A stretch of 64,000 nt of DNA from an uncultured Gammaproteobacteria bacterium (GTDB lineage: Bacteria > Pseudomonadota > Gammaproteobacteria > Steroidobacterales > Foliamicaceae): positions 1,668,212-1,732,211 of the forward strand of contig OX639965.1 of the NCBI GenBank assembly GCA_951828235.1. Direction: 5' to 3'. This document shows positions 5,150-26,348 of this stretch, piece by piece. Numbering within the stretch: the stretch's first letter is position 1; every line of letters begins with the position of its first letter. A program made the translations under genes and the position numbers. The notes beneath the pieces were generated by a model that was not told where the DNA came from, did not search any database, and saw only the letters and a program-made list of their open reading frames with translations.

Positions 5150-6418
5150 TGCATCAGCGGCGACCGCCGGTATATCTCGTTGACGGTTCATCGGAGGGGC
5201 CAGCGCCCACGCTCCTCGCCGTCCAGAAGCCCCAGTCCCCCGGGCCAGTATGTTCAACGCGGCATTGATATCCGCATTGCCGTAACGCCCGCAGGCGCGG
5301 CACTCGAAGCTGGCCTGCGAGCGCCGGTTGTCCTTTGCGACATGCCCGCAGTGCGAGCAGGTCTGAGAAGTGTAGGCCGGATCAACCTCGATCAGATCGG
5401 CGACCTTGTAGGCAAGCTTGTCGCGCAAGCCGCCCCAGCCGGTGTCGAGGATCCCCCGGTTCAGCCGCGCCTTGGCCCGCACCCTGCTGCCGGGGCGCCG
5501 GGCTGTGCCCTTCGCCGACTTCGTCATCGCCTCGATGTCCAGCTTCTCGACCACTACCGTTCCGGCGGTGGATACGAGATCACGGCTGGCGTGGTGCTGC
5601 CAGTTGGCGCGGATCATCGCCAGCTTCCTCGAGACCGACGCCCGTCGATGCCGGGCCAGGGCCCTTCTCTTCGAGCCCTTCCTGCGCCGGTCCATCATCC
5701 GCTGGTAGCGGTTCTCGCGGCCCTGCAGCTTCGCGACCTCGGGCGTGTGCAGGATCTCTCCGCCGCTGGTGGCGACTTGGCCGACGTTGCGGTCAAGGCC
5801 GAGGGTACGGCCATTGTCGTGCGGCGCCACGAGCTCGTCGGGAACCTCGTAGCACACCGTGCAGTACCAGCGCCCCAGCACGCGCTTGACCACGGCCTGC
5901 TTCGGCACATGGGCGTCATAGGGGTTGCCGCCCGAACGCCGCAGTACGCACCAGCCGATCTTCGGAATCCAGAGCCGGCGCACGCCGGTGATGGAGTCGA
6001 TGCGTATGGTCACGTTCTGCGGGATCGTGAACGAGTCATCGCCCCGGCGGGCCTTGAACTTCGGGAAGCCCGCCTTCGGATCGGTGAAGGTCCGCTTCCA
6101 GGCATCGGCCTGGCGCTTGAGGGCATAGCGCACCGGAGCGCAAGGGAGAGACTGTAGCCAAGGGGTCTCGGCACGAAGTTCCTTGAACCGCTTGCCGAGC
6201 GAGAAGAATGTGAGCGAGGGCTTTGCCGGGCGCTCGAAGCACATTCCAAGAAGCGTGTCCTCGCAGAAGCGCGGAGTGTCGCAATGCAGCCGGTACTGTT
6301 CCTTGGTCTCCGCCAGCACCCGGTTCCAGACCCAGCGGCCCGCGCCAGCGGTCTGAGAGACCTTCTCCGCCTTCGCGGCGCTGCCCGGGGCCAGGCGGAA
6401 TGTGATGTTGCGGTGCAT
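5141..6418 (-). CDS. tnpB: TnpB (OrfB) RNA-guided endonuclease of the IS200/IS605-IS1341 type; appears intact.
   Basis: RuvC-like residues in LGLDRNVGQ, VVVEKLDIE and NADINAALNI. Zinc ribbon CSHCGH...CRACG. 425 aa. Confidence 0.9.
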   Translation of the reverse strand: MHRNITFRLAPGSAAKAEKVSQTAGAGRWVWNRVLAETKEQYRLHCDTPRFCEDTLLGMCFERPAKPSLTFFSLGKRFKELRAETPWLQSLPCAPVRYALKRQADAWKRTFTDPKAGFPKFKARRGDDSFTIPQNVTIRIDSITGVRRLWIPKIGWCVLRRSGGNPYDAHVPKQAVVKRVLGRWYCTVCYEVPDELVAPHDNGRTLGLDRNVGQVATSGGEILHTPEVAKLQGRENRYQRMMDRRRKGSKRRALARHRRASVSRKLAMIRANWQHHASRDLVSTAGTVVVEKLDIEAMTKSAKGTARRPGSRVRAKARLNRGILDTGWGGLRDKLAYKVADLIEVDPAYTSQTCSHCGHVAKDNRRSQASFECRACGRYGNADINAALNILARGTGASGRRGAWALAPPMNRQRDIPAVAADAAT

Positions 6419-21886: not shown

Positions 21887-21894
21887 CTTATTTT
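21887..21894. repeat. Target-site duplication, left copy (CTTATTTT).
   Basis: An identical 8-mer directly abuts the outside of both inverted repeats. Confidence 0.85.
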
Positions 21895-21919
21895 GGGGAT
21901 TATATACCTAACTTGACAA
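21895..21919. repeat. Inverted repeat (rpoD-proximal end).
   Basis: GGGGATTATATACCTAACTTGACAA. Confidence 0.95.
21899..21904 (-). promoter_or_regulatory. Outward-facing consensus -10 hexamer (TATAAT) inside the IR, pointing toward rpoD.
   Basis: The minus strand reads TATAAT, ending 4 nt from the element tip. No good -35 sits at 17-bp spacing (TGCACC). Confidence 0.3.
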
Positions 21920-21933
21920 CAGGTGCACAAAGA

Positions 21934-21959
21934 GCAGCGCCCCTCGAAAGGGGCGCTGC
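21934..21959 (-). terminator. GC-rich hairpin, probable terminator of the minus-strand cargo operon.
   Basis: GCAGCGCCCCT-CGAA-AGGGGCGCTGC. On the minus strand it is followed by TCTTTGTG. Confidence 0.5.
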
Positions 21960-21990
21960 AATAGTATCCTAGAGTAAAGACCGCAACACG

Positions 21991-22134
21991 CTACATTACG
22001 AACCCAAGGAATGCGAAAATGAACGCTGCCAGGAACATGAGGAAAGCCACGACTTTACGGTCTTCATAATGCAGTCCCATAGTCAGAACCAAGAGTGCGC
22101 ACAGCCCCAGCCCAAGAGCGATATTCAACAACAT
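21991..22134 (-). CDS. 47-aa two-helix membrane peptide (hypothetical).
   Basis: Hand translation is MLLNIALGLGLCALLVLTMGLHYEDRKVVAFLMFLAAFIFAFLGFVM. It starts 2 nt after the upstream stop and is below the ORF-track size cutoff. Confidence 0.4.
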   Translation of the reverse strand: MLLNIALGLGLCALLVLTMGLHYEDRKVVAFLMFLAAFIFAFLGFVM

Positions 22135-22136
22135 TG

Positions 22137-23021
22137 TTAGTCGCGCTGGCGCCTTTCCCACTCCCTGAACTGTTCCAGGAATCGATCGAGCCGCCCCAGC
22201 GTATGATCCGCCGTATCCTCCTGGCTCAATGCATCTGCTTCTTCGCGGGCCAACGCGACCAGCACATCGATAATCTGCTGCCTCTCAGCGTCACTTAATG
22301 CATTCCATTCTTCTTCGGTCAGGCTGTCCAGATCGGCCAGTATCTCGACAACGGTTCTTGAGCTACTCCCAGAGGATGATCCGCCGGGCGCTTCTGTTCG
22401 GTTGCTAGGCCCGGTCGTTCGTGGATTTTTGCTCAAGCAATCCAAATACGCACCAGCGGCTGTGCCTGTAACTGCGCCTTGCAAGATTGCACTGCAAGGA
22501 TCGCGTAGCGCGTAAATTACATCGTTTTCGTTGATGTAAACATATATGTCCAAGGGATCCCTTCGGGTCGTCGCCTGGATTCCCCAATACGTTCCAATGG
22601 CGGTTGCCGCGGCGTGTATGGCGCCAACAGATTCCCTCAAGAACCATCCTGCCAAAGCTATAGATACTGTGTTTTCCGCAGTGGACATTGTGTAGGAAAG
22701 AGTCACCATTCTTCGCATGTCGTCAGTGACCATGTAACAACGTCCATCGGCAACGTAGTAGTCATATTCTTCCCGAACGATGAGTTCCCATTCATCTTCG
22801 TAATGTTCACGCCCGCGCCATGAAGACCCGTCTCTTGCATCGGCCCAACATTCACTCGGGGTGTCGTAGCCGTAAACATTTGTGGTGGCCCGCGCTGAAA
22901 ATACGCCCACAAGGAAATACAGTGCCATGACCAGCAATAGAAATATGCCGATACGTTCCCCTGTTTTTGACAGCGCCCATTGATGATAAGTCCGCCAAGC
23001 ATTACGAATCTTGTTTGTCAT
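22137..23021 (-). CDS. Hypothetical 294-aa protein with an N-terminal membrane anchor and an acidic coiled-coil C-terminus.
   Basis: ATG at 23021 (MTNKIRN) is preceded by AAGGAG. The longer track ORF (to 23255) runs through the tRNA gene and is rejected. I recognise no domain. Confidence 0.6.
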   Translation of the reverse strand: MTNKIRNAWRTYHQWALSKTGERIGIFLLLVMALYFLVGVFSARATTNVYGYDTPSECWADARDGSSWRGREHYEDEWELIVREEYDYYVADGRCYMVTDDMRRMVTLSYTMSTAENTVSIALAGWFLRESVGAIHAAATAIGTYWGIQATTRRDPLDIYVYINENDVIYALRDPCSAILQGAVTGTAAGAYLDCLSKNPRTTGPSNRTEAPGGSSSGSSSRTVVEILADLDSLTEEEWNALSDAERQQIIDVLVALAREEADALSQEDTADHTLGRLDRFLEQFREWERRQRD

Positions 23022-23162
23022 TTCCAAATTCTCCTTACAATGAGGAATGTGCCCCGCTGGTGAATCATGCTCTCCGTGCGCAATTTGATAGTAGCACAGT
23101 TCAATTGACAAGATAACGCGCGTTATCAGGTATACTTGATATCGCCAATGCCCAAAAGGAGA

Positions 23163-23261
23163 CGGAGGCGGCGGGATTCGAACCCACGGTAGGTATTTTG
23201 CTTTACGGGCACCTACACCGGTTTTTAAGACCGGCGCATTAAGCCACTCTGCCACGCCTCC
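23163..23261 (-). tRNA. 99-nt class II tRNA with anticodon UAA (Leu by anticodon) but Ser-like architecture, G73 discriminator and an about 30-nt variable region.
   Basis: Hand-folded cloverleaf: GGAGGCG / TG / GCA-GAGTGGCTTAA-TGC / G / CCGGT-CTTAAAA-ACCGG / TGTAGGTGCCCGTAAAGCAAAATACCTACC / GTGGG-TTCGAAT-CCCGC / CGCCTCC / G. No encoded CCA. Confidence 0.75.
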
Positions 23262-23289
23262 GCAGAGCGGTTGCGGAGCATAGCATCTT

Positions 23290-23323
23290 GGGGCGAGAGG
23301 GTTGATCCTTCTCGCCCCTTTTT
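23290..23323 (+). terminator. Intrinsic-terminator-like hairpin plus T-run, with no obvious upstream plus-strand gene.
   Basis: GGGGCGAGA-(11 nt)-TCTCGCCCC-TTTTT. Confidence 0.45.
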
Positions 23324-23665
23324 ACTATGTGATATATTTTCCCACGAGAAATTCGCTGGTATCCCCTATGTCGGGTTGCCCGCTGAATACAACAGCCGTT
23401 TGCAGCCTGGAGTAGCTATCCGGACTTGGTAAACAAGCGGGATTTTCGCTACCAGTGAATTTCTCAAAGGCCCGGCGCTTTGCCAGGCCAAAACAAGCGA
23501 GCCTCCAACGAGGATAAGTCGTCGGAGGCTCTTACCGCGCAGAGAGTTGAATACCACACAGCGCGGCAGCGGCATTGTAGCCTCTGCAACGAGCAGGCTT
23601 TCTCTCTGCGCCTCAGCCGACCCCGCTTTCCAAGGCGGGGTCGGTTCCAATAAGAGGAAGAGAGC

Positions 23666-24169
23666 ATGTTTGAGAAGAAAGCAGATCCTGGCGGGGCTAT
23701 TTTCGTCGGGATACTTCTAATCGTTGTCGTTCCACTTCTGACAGGGATGTGTTCTGTTGCTTATCCACAAGAAAGCAACAGAATCCTGACTAAAGAGCAG
23801 TCACCCGCCGTGCAAGCAATTAACACGGCGCTAGAGAACGTGGACGCCGCAATTGTGGAAGCAACGGTAACGCGAGACTATTTTGTTGCGCAACTTGCCG
23901 CACCTACATTCAACACAGCGAAGATAGAAGAGAAAAGCCACGCGCATATGGCAAAAATTACGGCAGCGGACGAAAAATGGCGTATTGCTTCCGAGTTGCT
24001 TCAAGAGACGGCAGAAAACGCGCCTCATGCCTTCAAGAGTATTGAACAATTATGGGCGACACGTGATCGCCTGCAAGCCGCGCGCGACCGTATTACGGCA
24101 TTGGGAGAAGATGCGCTAAAAGCACTGGACCGAAGCGCGTCCCGTTTACAGAGACAGTTGGAACGATGA
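23666..24169 (+). CDS. Hypothetical membrane-anchored coiled-coil protein (167 aa).
   Basis: N-terminal TM segment (AIFVGILLIVVVPLLTG). ATGA overlap with the downstream nuclease gene. AGAGGAAGAGAG RBS region. Confidence 0.55.
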   Translation: MFEKKADPGGAIFVGILLIVVVPLLTGMCSVAYPQESNRILTKEQSPAVQAINTALENVDAAIVEATVTRDYFVAQLAAPTFNTAKIEEKSHAHMAKITAADEKWRIASELLQETAENAPHAFKSIEQLWATRDRLQAARDRITALGEDALKALDRSASRLQRQLER

Positions 24170-24810
24170 AGAAAACCACTCCTGTTCTCTTCGCATTACT
24201 GGCCTACGCCTGTCTTGCCACGGGCGAAGATGCACACGCCCAGCTCGCAACAGCAGCCACCGTAACCGGCGCCTATGATGGAGACACGATTTACGTTACC
24301 GCGGCTGTTTGGCCCAACATGCTTTGGGCTGGCAGTGTTCGCGTTCTCGGCGTAGACACACCGGAGATTCAGGGGCGCTGCGTACAGGAAAGCACGCTGG
24401 CGCTTGAGGCACGGGATTACGTTCGGGATCTGTTGACTGACGAGAGTGTTCTTTTGACGGATGTGAAGAACGACAAATATGGCGGGCGTGTCCTGGCGCA
24501 TGTCTTTTTACAAGCGGAAGACAACCAGCAGAATCTTGCTGCTCTACTTATCGAGCGAGGCTTGGGGCGTGATTATGATGGCGGCACTCGGCAAAGCTGG
24601 TGTGGAGATGAGCAGGAATTGCCCGAACAGGCGGCACCAGTTGATGCCGATGTGAACCTGGACGATCCTCTTGCACTATATGACGATAACAATAACGGCA
24701 GGATTACTTGTGCTGAAGCAAGAAAGCACGGGATTGCGCCCGTGAAAAGCGACCATCCTGCTTACCGCTATATGAACGATAGAGACAGGGATGGGGTGGT
24801 TTGCGAGTAA
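24166..24810 (+). CDS. Secreted thermonuclease (SNase-like) with a C-terminal Excalibur calcium-binding domain.
   Basis: Signal peptide, DGDTIYV, LGVDTPE, KYGGRVLAHVF, and a C-terminal DDNNNGRITCAEA...DRDRDGVVCE. Confidence 0.8.
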   Translation: MKKTTPVLFALLAYACLATGEDAHAQLATAATVTGAYDGDTIYVTAAVWPNMLWAGSVRVLGVDTPEIQGRCVQESTLALEARDYVRDLLTDESVLLTDVKNDKYGGRVLAHVFLQAEDNQQNLAALLIERGLGRDYDGGTRQSWCGDEQELPEQAAPVDADVNLDDPLALYDDNNNGRITCAEARKHGIAPVKSDHPAYRYMNDRDRDGVVCE

Positions 24811-24860
24811 TTATCAAGATAACCAAGATAATCTTGTGATACACTCCTTTCCAAGGAGAG

Positions 24861-24933
24861 TGGCCCCGGAGAGAATCGAACTCTCACCTTCCCGTTCGGC
24901 AAACAGGGGCTCTATCCGTTGAGCTACGGGGCC
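24861..24933 (-). tRNA. tRNA-Gly (anticodon GCC), 73 nt, no encoded CCA.
   Basis: Hand fold: GGCCCCG / TA / GCTC-AACGGATA-GAGC / C / CCTGT-TTGCCGA-ACGGG / AAGGT / GAGAG-TTCGATT-CTCTC / CGGGGCC / A. Confidence 0.85.
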
Positions 24934-25085
24934 ACTTCTTCATTCTACTGTTAATGAATGCACGTAACTACGTGCGGCGCTTAATTCGTTGCGCATGAAA
25001 TTTGCGCAAAGAATTACAACAGAATATGTTGTATCATATATTCAACAGTTTTAACTGTAATCATCATCAATATCTGGAGATAACT

Positions 25086-25337
25086 ATGAGCACCAAATCC
25101 AAGCTCAATGGCAGCGTTGATTTGTTGGCTAAAGCAATGCGTCAGGTGTTCACAGAGGCCGTAGAAGAAGGTCTTGTTCCAGTGCGAGAGGACATCAAGG
25201 ACATTCGTGGCGACATCAAGAAACTGAGCGACGGTCTGGACACGACAAACCAGAACATGCAGGCGCAATTCGCGCAACATCGCAAGGACGTGTCGGCAGA
25301 TGTGCGCCAAGCTTTACGGCGTCAGCCTAGCCGTTAG
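25086..25337 (+). CDS. Hypothetical 83-aa helical protein.
   Basis: ATG at 25086 (MSTKSKLNGSVDLL...) with GGAG 6 nt upstream of the ATG. Convergent 4-nt overlap with the transposase stop. Confidence 0.4.
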   Translation: MSTKSKLNGSVDLLAKAMRQVFTEAVEEGLVPVREDIKDIRGDIKKLSDGLDTTNQNMQAQFAQHRKDVSADVRQALRRQPSR

Positions 25338-26287
25338 GCGATCAAGTCCCGGTACATCAGCCGCTTTCCAACTAGGCCAGCGATTACGTTCCGCATCATC
25401 GCGGCGGTATCGCACTCGCGGAGATTGTGACGGCCTGCGAACTCTGTGACGTAACGTTGCAGGTGCTTCCGACTCATCTTGTGGAACGTGCCGGTGTGAG
25501 CACGTTTGAGCATTGACCAAAAGGACTCTACGCCGTTGGTGTGAATCTGCCCATCAACGTATTGTCCGGCGCCATGCTTGACAGCACTATGATTCGCCAG
25601 TCCTCTATAGGCACGCGCTTCGTCGGTAAAGATTGGAGCGCCAGGAGCCGCTGATGCACTTACGAAGCCGTGCAATGTGGGTTTGTCTGTCTTCTCCACT
25701 ACACGAGCCTGAACACGATTACTCTGACGATCCTTTGCGCCGACTACGGCTGTCTTGCCCACGGTGCCGCGACCTGCTTTCAGGCGGTCCTTGACATGTT
25801 TGTTCTTCTCTTTGCCACCCACATAGGTTTCGTCTACTTCCACCGGACCGATAAACTTTTCAATGCCTGATGTGTCCCAAGCCTCGCGTAATCTGTGGAG
25901 CAGGAACCACGCCGTCTTTTGCGTCACTTTCAGATCCCGATGCAGCTTCATGCTGGACACGCCCTTCAAGCTGGTTACATAGAGATAGGTTGCGACCGCC
26001 CACTTGCGCAGTGGCAGGCGGGAACTCTGCAAGGTTGTGCCGGTGCGGACGCTGAAATACTGGCGGCAGTCCGTGCACCAATAGGGCATCGGCTTGCGGT
26101 TCGGGACTTCCTTTGTCGCAGTGCTTCCACAGTGACCGCAGCATCGACCCTCCGGCCATTGTACGGATTCGAACCACTGGACAGCCGTATCTTCGTCGGG
26201 AAACATCTCCATTAGCCTGATGAGCGAGATGCCTTTACGATCTGATTTTCCGGGAGATTTGTGCTTGGACATAATGTATTCCTCCAT
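25334..26287 (-). CDS. IS1595-family DDE transposase (ISXO2-like domain) with an N-terminal zinc ribbon.
   Basis: CCGHCGS...YWCTDCRQYFSVRTGT, VEVDETYVGG, FTDEARAY, HTNGVESFWSMLKR. Alternative start at 26272 (MSKHK). Confidence 0.9.
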   Translation of the reverse strand: MEEYIMSKHKSPGKSDRKGISLIRLMEMFPDEDTAVQWFESVQWPEGRCCGHCGSTATKEVPNRKPMPYWCTDCRQYFSVRTGTTLQSSRLPLRKWAVATYLYVTSLKGVSSMKLHRDLKVTQKTAWFLLHRLREAWDTSGIEKFIGPVEVDETYVGGKEKNKHVKDRLKAGRGTVGKTAVVGAKDRQSNRVQARVVEKTDKPTLHGFVSASAAPGAPIFTDEARAYRGLANHSAVKHGAGQYVDGQIHTNGVESFWSMLKRAHTGTFHKMSRKHLQRYVTEFAGRHNLRECDTAAMMRNVIAGLVGKRLMYRDLIA

Positions 26288-26315
26288 ACGCGTATTTTCT
26301 CAGATTATGCTGGCT

Positions 26316-26340
26316 TTGTCAAGTTAGGTATATAATCCCC
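26316..26340. repeat. Inverted repeat (transposase-proximal end).
   Basis: TTGTCAAGTTAGGTATATAATCCCC is the exact reverse complement of 21895-21919. Confidence 0.95.
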
Positions 26341-26348
26341 CTTATTTT
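26341..26348. repeat. Target-site duplication, right copy (CTTATTTT).
   Basis: Identical to 21887-21894. Confidence 0.85.

Follow-up and report, generated by a model that had tools for sequence, protein, structure and literature searches.

A serine-type tRNA with the leucine anticodon UAA on a recently inserted IS1595-family transposon of a GC-rich gammaproteobacterium

Allo-tRNAs are bacterial tRNAs that combine the identity elements recognised by seryl-tRNA synthetase (SerRS) with mostly non-serine anticodons (Mukai et al. 2017, PMC5389517; PMC7609411). The 9/3 allo-tRNAs include leucine anticodons (UUA/UUG/CUA/CUG), and the genes, found in Acidobacteria, Proteobacteria and Clostridia, often lie near toxin–antitoxin and transposon-related genes (PMC5389517, PMC7609411). 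When tested in Escherichia coli, two allo-tRNAs with serine identity and leucine anticodons inserted serine at CUC and UUA codons (PMC5389517, PMC7609411). SerRS ignores the anticodon, recognising the long variable arm, the discriminator base G73 and pairs in the acceptor and D stems (PMC7609411, PMC9976931), and tRNAs whose variable-arm tips have been replaced by aptamers remain active with serine (PMC7590224). Here, we describe a class II tRNA gene with the anticodon UAA, hereafter the window tRNA, in a 64,000-nt stretch of DNA (the window) from an uncultured gammaproteobacterium (contig OX639965.1, positions 1,668,212 to 1,732,211), where it is carried by an IS1595-family transposon (Table 1; coordinates are those of the window unless another locus is named). 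A first reading of the letters (the original prediction) had proposed a leucine anticodon on a serine-type body; having followed this up, we give slightly better than even credence to the view that the gene encodes a functional seryl-tRNA that would decode UUA.

The Rfam tRNA model RF00005 matched the gene end to end (59.5 bits, E value 2.4e-10 for the whole 64-kb window), in agreement with the predicted class II cloverleaf, 7-nt anticodon loop CTTAAAA and UAA anticodon, and the Rfam alignment places four standard, intact helices. The split is the canonical 7/5 (acceptor stem 7 bp, T stem 5 bp), and the D stem has 3–4 bp. The 5′ part reads GGAGGCG-UG-GCAG-AGUGGCUUAA-UGC-G-CCGGU-CUUAAAA-ACCGG and the 3′ part U-GUAGGU-GCCCGUAAAGCAAAAU-ACCUAC-C-GUGGG-UUCGAAU-CCCGC-CGCCUCC-G. 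The features on which the original prediction had relied can all be read here: the acceptor stem GGAGGCG/CGCCUCC with its GGA start, the discriminator G73 (the G at 23163), the serine-type D arm GCAGAGUGGCUUAAUGC, in which G10 C11 ... G24 C25 are directly readable, and the T loop UUCGAAU. The anticodon itself (23227–23225) lies in the loop CUUAAAA, with U33, A37 and A38, closed by the stem CCGGU/ACCGG. The conserved tertiary positions (U8, A14, G18G19, G15:C48 and the TTCGAAT loop) are intact and, because the fold is fully canonical, the tRNA should suit any bacterial translation system.

The identity of the tRNA was assessed with covariance models made from annotated E. coli K-12 genes (serT, W, U and V; leuZ, W, U, T and X) and T4-like phage tRNA-Ser and tRNA-Leu. 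In these home-made models, which stand in for tRNAscan-SE isotype scoring but do not replace it and which were built from few sequences (8 and 6, chiefly from enterobacteria or phages), the window tRNA scored 87.0 bits as serine and 44.1 bits as leucine, i.e. 43 bits lower, so the mismatch between isotype and anticodon that had been anticipated was found and leucine was not the highest-scoring isotype. Of the controls from outside the training sets, tRNA-Ser(CGA) returned 68.8 bits with the serine model and 37.4 bits with the leucine model, tRNA-Ser(GCU) 53.5 and 29.5 bits, and two tRNA-Tyr 38–39 and 54–55 bits.

Inspection of individual positions pointed the same way. The E. coli seryl identity set comprises the long variable arm, G73, G1:C72, G2:C71, A3:U70 and C11:G24, and the window tRNA holds all of it, as well as a D loop of E. 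coli tRNA-Ser length. Position 73 is G in four of four E. coli tRNA-Ser and A in five of five E. coli tRNA-Leu; A73, the major determinant for leucyl-tRNA synthetase (LeuRS) in E. coli, is absent from the window tRNA, as is the leucine-type D arm and loop GGNGNAAUNGGUAGAC that shapes the tertiary core, a GGUAGAC-type D arm being present in all E. coli and phage tRNA-Leu aligned. The anticodon arm of E. coli serT, CCGGUCUUGAAAACCGG, differs from that of the window tRNA at position 35 only, exactly as stated in the original prediction. The best full-length matches in the phage collection were all annotated as tRNA-Ser, one of which shares 39 of 44 positions of the 5′ half with the window tRNA, and BLASTn against E. 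coli genomes gave no match at the database size used. Since its anticodon is UAA and not a serine anticodon (NGA or GCU), the gene cannot be filed as an ordinary tRNA-Ser; judged from its sequence, the evidence favours serine rather than leucine identity, two options between which the original prediction had not chosen.

The window tRNA is not alone. Using the serine-type D arm followed by the loop CTTAAAA as a pattern, we recovered 28 loci in 185,579 species genomes and 52 in metagenomes (designated by L numbers), counts from which no preference for UAA over other anticodons can be read since every scan required the UAA loop; the same scan of viral contigs gave 0 hits. Besides the window tRNA, these loci yielded 39 distinct intact class II cloverleaves from many phyla, most of them with G73 and a GGAG acceptor start. 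Among the closest relatives, L084 has the same anticodon arm and variable stem as the window tRNA, with a normal GAAA loop, and the two are separated by a compensatory change in the acceptor stem (A6:U67 to C6:G67), while L001 and L085 share the acceptor stem of the window tRNA. Across 41 family members, in an alignment fitted to the model so that pairing counts lean towards structure, 97.3 % of helix cells were paired, with double (compensatory) changes in 20 of 24 pairs, the variable stem included; part of this covariation may predate the UAA anticodon. ARAGORN labelled the relatives as tRNA-Leu, and annotation pipelines will call such genes tRNA-Leu from the anticodon.

Some pattern hits merit description in their own right. 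L007, L012, L024, L060 and L076 have A73 and may, on this base, be leucine acceptors. At L007 (2312–2861), from an alphaproteobacterial metagenome-assembled genome, near-identical class II, Ser-like tRNAs with the acceptor GGAGGGA and A73 carry the anticodons AGG (Pro), UAA (Leu) and UAC (Val), and a weak tRNA-like 'Ala(UGC)' accompanies them; 150 nt from this cluster is a decayed IS1595 transposase with a frameshift. Two Dehalococcoidia tRNAs, L012 (3738–3829, A73) and L020 (6469–6560, G73), are almost identical, with the same acceptor, anticodon arm and T arm, and differ at position 73, which separates leucine from serine identity. Finally, L004, L005, L011, L016, L017 and L018 are serine-type 5′ tRNA halves that end at or just past CTTAAAA and continue into unrelated sequence; these truncated hits look like recombination scars at the anticodon loop.

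The carrier of the window tRNA is well defined, and the description of the gene as cargo stands. The transposon is bounded by perfect 25-nt inverted repeats (21895–21919 and 26316–26340), is flanked by rpoD and by a DUF4345 gene that neighbours dnaG, and has a GC content of ~52 % in a host region of ~65 %. Two sister contigs from one metagenome (L029 and L030), whose RpoD is identical to that of the host, carry dnaG-DUF4345-rpoD with no insertion, and the 8-bp sequence CTTATTTT, duplicated in the window, is single in both. The duplicated target and the empty sites with identical flanks therefore identify a bona fide, very recent insertion, and the existence of the empty site provides a natural isogenic pair, with and without the tRNA, in one metagenome. 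BLASTn of the transposon against plasmids returned no match, and exact look-ups of the transposase, the nuclease and protein P0001 found no record. Independently of the transposon, the two sister contigs differ between rpsU and dnaG, where a PIN/MazE toxin–antitoxin pair (L029 6789–7471) is present only in L029.

The gene has the look of a tRNA-Ser(UGA)-type gene in which A has taken the place of G at position 35 and the loop of the variable arm has been enlarged. Because the features that SerRS recognises are all present, the host SerRS should serylate it; on the ribosome, UUA and, by wobble, probably UUG would in that case be decoded as serine, and the tRNA would compete with any genuine tRNA-Leu(UAA). 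As the host uses UUA less than once per 1000 codons, the cost of serine at UUA is expected to be low, which may explain why the mobile DNA of GC-rich genomes retains these tRNAs. If the element gains anything, candidate benefits would be less stalling where AT-richer mobile genes use the rare codon UUA, or damage to AT-rich invaders.

Several observations weigh against a seryl-tRNA that decodes UUA, beginning with the codon use of the element itself. In counts based on rough ORF calls, TTA makes up 14 of 16,869 codons in host ORFs (0.83 per 1000) and 7 of 1,070 in cargo ORFs (6.5 per 1000, ~8-fold above the host), which supports the earlier suggestion that UUA is rare in the host and used by the cargo. 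The two codons cited as examples are both in frame at leucine positions, TTA 24196–24198 encoding Leu11 of the nuclease, whose hydrophobic N-terminal stretch (a putative signal peptide) holds a TTA codon, and TTA 25889–25891 encoding the Leu of HRLRE in the transposase. All seven cargo TTA codons sit at positions that look genuinely leucine, so serine insertion would harm the element itself. Such usage is what would be expected if the gene were an odd but genuine tRNA-Leu(UAA) that supplies the rare UUA codon to AT-richer mobile genes in a GC-rich host, and the UAA anticodon, the A73 of some pattern hits and the anticodon-blindness that bacterial LeuRS shares with SerRS fit this reading too. 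We nevertheless regard a leucine acceptor as quite unlikely, given that the window tRNA has G73 in place of A73, a D arm and loop geometry of serine type and a leucine score 43 bits under its serine score, and that the neighbours of related tRNAs in cas and restriction loci are nearly TTA-free, so that codon supply offers no explanation there. Two further proposals involving TTA fared no better: recoding of the transposase was rejected, as TTA is conserved at no column of the alignment and is absent altogether from four of the transposases linked to a tRNA, and codon supply to cas and restriction neighbours was dropped (0–2.4 TTA per 1000 codons, save one small Mrr gene).

Other points against a functional seryl-tRNA concern the gene's structure, expression and distribution. 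Its 16-nt variable loop, far larger than is usual in tRNA-Ser, might interfere with folding or with binding by SerRS, the upstream sequence yielded no call for a consensus sigma-70 promoter, CCA is not encoded after the gene, and the isotype models are, as stated, small. In addition, the four closest relatives of the window transposon, with transposases 79–86 % identical and the same inverted repeat, have no tRNA, from which it follows that the tRNA is dispensable for the element. The original prediction had called the variable region abnormal: its dimensions were confirmed (~30 nt, stem GTAGGT/ACCTAC, 16-nt loop), but the arm is extreme rather than unique because those of L083 (29 nt) and L046/47 (35 nt) are long too. 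Folded alone, it forms a 7-bp stem and an open 14-nt loop (-6.1 kcal/mol). An ARAGORN run, which had been proposed as a check, reported only a tRNA-Gly in the window and missed the tRNA(UAA), probably because of the 30-nt variable arm.

Many of these points would suit a non-functional or barely functional relic, that is, a passenger tRNA-Ser(UGA) which acquired G35A and an insertion in the variable loop and persists because the transposon copy is young. The anticodon arm is one substitution away from a normal tRNA-Ser(UGA), the variable loop exceeds that of the closest relative, L084, by 12 nt, ARAGORN rejects the gene, and the lack of a called promoter, of an encoded CCA and of any tRNA in the closest transposon relatives would be accounted for. 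Every helix and conserved tertiary position is, however, intact, the diverged tRNAs of L084 and L001/L085 are also UAA and differ by compensatory pair changes, long variable arms recur (L046/47, L083), and 39 other distinct intact members indicate that UAA on a serine body is no one-off decay product. We therefore consider decay an unlikely explanation and continue to prefer a functional seryl-tRNA.

With regard to expression, a GC-rich, terminator-like hairpin on the plus strand lies 29 nt upstream of the 5′ end of the tRNA, and the sequence between the two contains a possible extended -10 box (TGcTATGCT). The surrounding non-coding stretch of 400 nt (23262–23665), which separates the tRNA from the 167-aa ORF, also holds a minus-strand terminator-like hairpin (23531–23499) besides the strong plus-strand one, and two 16-nt repeats in inverted orientation, separated by 88 nt (23346–23361 and 23450–23465); its only Rfam signal is a sub-threshold match to sRNA-Xcc1 (23.6 bits, E value 0.88). 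Both cargo tRNAs are followed by similar trailers on the minus strand (23085–23165 and 24783–24863), with TCTCCTT..GG right after the discriminator, a short palindrome and GTTATCTTGnnAATT ~45–55 nt downstream, a likeness that points to origin from a common cassette or to a signal used by both.

Among the cargo genes, orf294 begins 141 nt downstream of the window tRNA on the same strand, so co-transcription of the two is possible. A link between them was dropped, since homologues of orf294 (P0002 and P0003; 65 % and 34 % identity) occur on five contigs without a tRNA. The transposase has an N-terminal Zn ribbon (PF12760) and a single TTA codon. An ORF of 83–87 aa at the position of the 83-aa ORF, matched by size and position only, is present in two of the four related elements (L100 and L105/L106); in L102, an 84-aa ORF lies further from the transposase, beyond a methylase-HNH gene, and in L101 none was called.

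The related elements L100, L101, L102 and L105 share the inverted repeat GGGGATTATATAC..AACTTGAC with the window transposon. Duplications of 8 bp are present at L100, L101, L105 and L058, and none is readable at L102. In place of the tRNA, these relatives carry methylase-HNH, SocA/Panacea or HD-domain cargo, and the cargo differs from member to member (N6/N4 methylase-HNH, SocA/Panacea, or ORFs without assigned function); the HD-CE gene of L102–L104 overlaps the left inverted repeat and lies mostly outside the element. Just beyond the right end of the related transposon in L102–L104, upstream of a BrnA antitoxin gene, is a DUF3800-VI RNA motif (Rfam, 55 bits).

The tRNA pattern was the sole criterion by which loci were retrieved, yet 17 of the 39 distinct tRNA loci have a transposase of IS1595 or IS1 type in the flank retrieved, as compared with 0 of 31 non-tRNA pattern hits (Fisher p = 8e-6). 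In L058, L061, L025 and L070, the inverted repeats of the element enclose the tRNA, with a clear 8-bp target duplication at L058 (GGGATTGT), one of ~6 bp at L025 and none readable at L061 and L070; the L025 element, of 1.5 kb, consists of inverted repeat, tRNA, transposase and inverted repeat. A soil/Acidobacteria group (Pyrinomonadaceae and relatives: L003, L049/L074, L067, L070 and L078) shares a one-strand unit of 1.2–1.3 kb (e.g. L074 4824–6123) composed of a promoter (CTTGAC-N17-TATnATAC), a leader of ~70 nt that ends in a terminator-like hairpin and U run directly before the tRNA, the tRNA(UAA), ~50 nt and a transposase, the homology ending at the transposase stop codon. We rejected an assignment of the transposases of this group to IS1595, since Pfam PF03400 identifies them as IS1-like. 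IS1-like relatives at 72–73 % identity have a different leader and no tRNA, and no such tRNA was present in 80 IS1595 loci from viral contigs. We consequently rejected the idea that every such insertion sequence has the tRNA, there being IS1-like, IS1595 and closest-relative elements without it. The link is one-way: the odd tRNAs tend to ride such elements, and most elements carry none.

The conserved order of the soil unit, on one strand, raises the question of a mainly non-decoding role, in which the tRNA would benefit the transposon as RNA or DNA, e.g. as a processing or insulating element within a co-transcript cut by RNase P and RNase Z, or as a tRNA-like regulator. The position of the window tRNA upstream of orf294, with no clear terminator between them, would be compatible with this, and for some allo-tRNAs linked to transposons, roles outside translation have been suspected (Mukai et al., PMC5389517). 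In IS1595 elements, however, the tRNA may lie on the transposase strand or be convergent with or divergent from that gene, at anything from 50 nt to 3 kb, and a processing signal would not need the full conservation of features tied to aminoacylation and the ribosome (acceptor helix, G73, T loop and a 7-nt anticodon loop with U33 and A37). The variable loop GCCCGUAAAGCAAAAU has neither a second copy nor a complement in the window, so it lacks a pairing partner and base-pairing with the element was dropped; guidance to target sites was also dropped, as CTTATTTT, TTCATTTG, ACAAAAAA, TAATTAAT and GGGATTGT share nothing with the anticodon loop. We judge a mainly non-decoding function to be highly improbable.

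Defence contexts were encountered at several of the eight transposase-free loci whose ORFs were scanned. In L085, cas3 and cas8g of a type I-G system (PADLOC Cas8g, E value 5e-226) flank the tRNA (6034–6122, minus strand), and in L023 (4805–4887, plus strand) cas6 and cas3 do so; the two tRNAs are mutually unrelated, both lie on the cas-gene strand of type I CRISPR-Cas operons, and the cas genes are nearly TTA-free. The L084 tRNA adjoins genes for a Z1 protein and an Mrr-type endonuclease, and that of L001 is near a gene for a UvrD-type helicase. A serine-charged tRNA(UAA) could be a natural, mobile 'codon-poisoning' module, spread by IS1595 and IS1 elements and embedded in CRISPR-Cas operons and restriction islands, that would cause mistranslation of UUA, a codon avoided by GC-rich hosts and used by AT-richer phages and plasmids. 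This reading fits the genomic company of the tRNAs, given their cas and restriction neighbours, but the seven TTA codons that the window element has in its own ORFs detract from it; we hold it to be very doubtful. If true, such tRNAs would represent an immune effector or exclusion device based on codon usage, a natural counterpart of engineered Ser/Leu swaps. We know of no natural counterpart of the engineered codon firewall. Engineered reassignment of sense codons, which serves as a firewall against viruses and gene transfer, resembles the defence reading in that a tRNA inserting the wrong amino acid at a host-avoided codon wrecks incoming genes that contain it, and it differs in being man-made and in using genomes fully cleared of the codon (PMC12269064, PMC13596443).

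Table 1. Coordinates of the window tRNA, its carrier transposon and related features (window coordinates unless an L number is given)
Feature	Position	Strand	Evidence or remarks
IS1595-family transposon, 4,446 bp	21895–26340		Inverted repeats, empty site
Left 8-bp target-site duplication CTTATTTT	21887–21894
Right 8-bp target-site duplication CTTATTTT	26341–26348
56-aa ORF	21991–22161	minus	Hydrophobic composition, left end of element
294-aa ORF (orf294)	22137–23021	minus	No assigned function; starts 141 nt downstream of tRNA(UAA)
Window tRNA(UAA) gene, 99-nt class II	23163–23261	minus	Rfam RF00005
Variable arm of window tRNA, 30 nt	23188–23217	minus	U, stem GUAGGU/ACCUAC, 16-nt loop, C48
Variable loop of window tRNA, 16 nt	23195–23210	minus	A-rich, GCCCGUAAAGCAAAAU
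GC-rich hairpin, terminator-like on plus strand	23290–23318	plus	29 nt upstream of tRNA 5′ end
167-aa ORF	23666–24169	plus	No assigned function; no Pfam, PADLOC or NCBIfam hits
Staphylococcal-nuclease homologue, C-terminal Excalibur	24166–24810	plus	Pfam SNase 9e-10, Excalibur 4e-10; PADLOC SNc+LTD 4e-9
Second cargo tRNA, ordinary-looking tRNA-Gly(GCC)	24861–24933	minus	ARAGORN (24860–24933), Rfam 62.7 bits; CCA not encoded
83-aa ORF, convergent with transposase	25086–25337	plus	No confident Pfam hit
IS1595-family transposase	25334–26287	minus	Pfam PF12762 (DDE_Tnp_IS1595) 4e-41; NCBIfam transpos_IS1595 1e-57
Related element	L100 54–2346
Related element	L101 2853–5379
Related element	L102 6932–9510
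Related element	L105 3070–5888
DUF3800-VI motif	L102 9564–9620
DUF3800-VI motif	L103 4114–4170
DUF3800-VI motif	L104 4110–4166

Natural tRNAs in which identity and anticodon are mismatched are the raw material of code change and of deliberate mistranslation, and few bacterial cases are known. The window tRNA and its relatives open testable questions: whether mistranslating tRNAs are spread by mobile DNA, what allows GC-rich hosts to tolerate them, and whether the rarity of a codon is exploited for or against incoming DNA. The literature searched gave no description of a canonical-fold, serine-type tRNA(UAA), of its carriage by IS1595, IS1 or other transposons, or of its presence inside cas operons.

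Among known tRNAs that touch on the same codon, the Streptomyces bldA tRNA-Leu(UAA) is dedicated to decoding UUA in a high-GC host in which TTA is very rare and concentrated in accessory or horizontally acquired genes. Unlike the window tRNA, bldA is a normal leucine acceptor (A73, leucine-type body), is chromosomal and is developmentally regulated. The yeast tRNA-Ser(CAG) is marked in its anticodon loop by G33 and m1G37, whereas the window tRNA has U33 and A37. This tRNA of the CUG-clade yeasts is likewise of serine type with a leucine anticodon, leads to Leu-to-Ser decoding and competes with a leucine tRNA in Ascoidea, where decoding is dual, but it is nuclear, fixed within its lineage and responsible for a genome-wide reassignment, and it reads CUG, not UUA (PMC6041473). 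A human variant, tRNA-Ser-AGA-2-3 G35A, bears the same kind of change as that proposed here, retains serylation because SerRS ignores the anticodon, and inserts serine at the codons of Phe, a hydrophobic residue (PMC12993449, PMC9956149); it is a chromosomal population variant of a eukaryote that affects Phe rather than Leu codons, and it is neither mobile nor a recurrent gene family. The tRNAProX/ProRSx pairs of Streptomyces and Kitasatospora set a proline body against Ala, Asn or Thr anticodons and cause mistranslation in E. coli, but they have another identity, a dedicated synthetase paralogue, A33 and further oddities, and carriage by transposons was not reported (PMC11415595).

The allo-tRNAs remain the closest relatives in kind. 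Like them, the window tRNA joins SerRS identity elements to a non-serine anticodon; it differs in structure, since in allo-tRNAs the acceptor branch of 12 bp is split 8/4 or 9/3 and the D stem is long, while the window tRNA is 7/5 with a normal, 3-bp D stem of serine type, and in its carrier, an IS1595 transposon whose mobility is demonstrated by its target duplication and the empty site. Mistranslating tRNAs of hybrid identity that reside on mobile DNA are an already known kind, of which the window tRNA is the canonical-fold counterpart to the allo-tRNAs.

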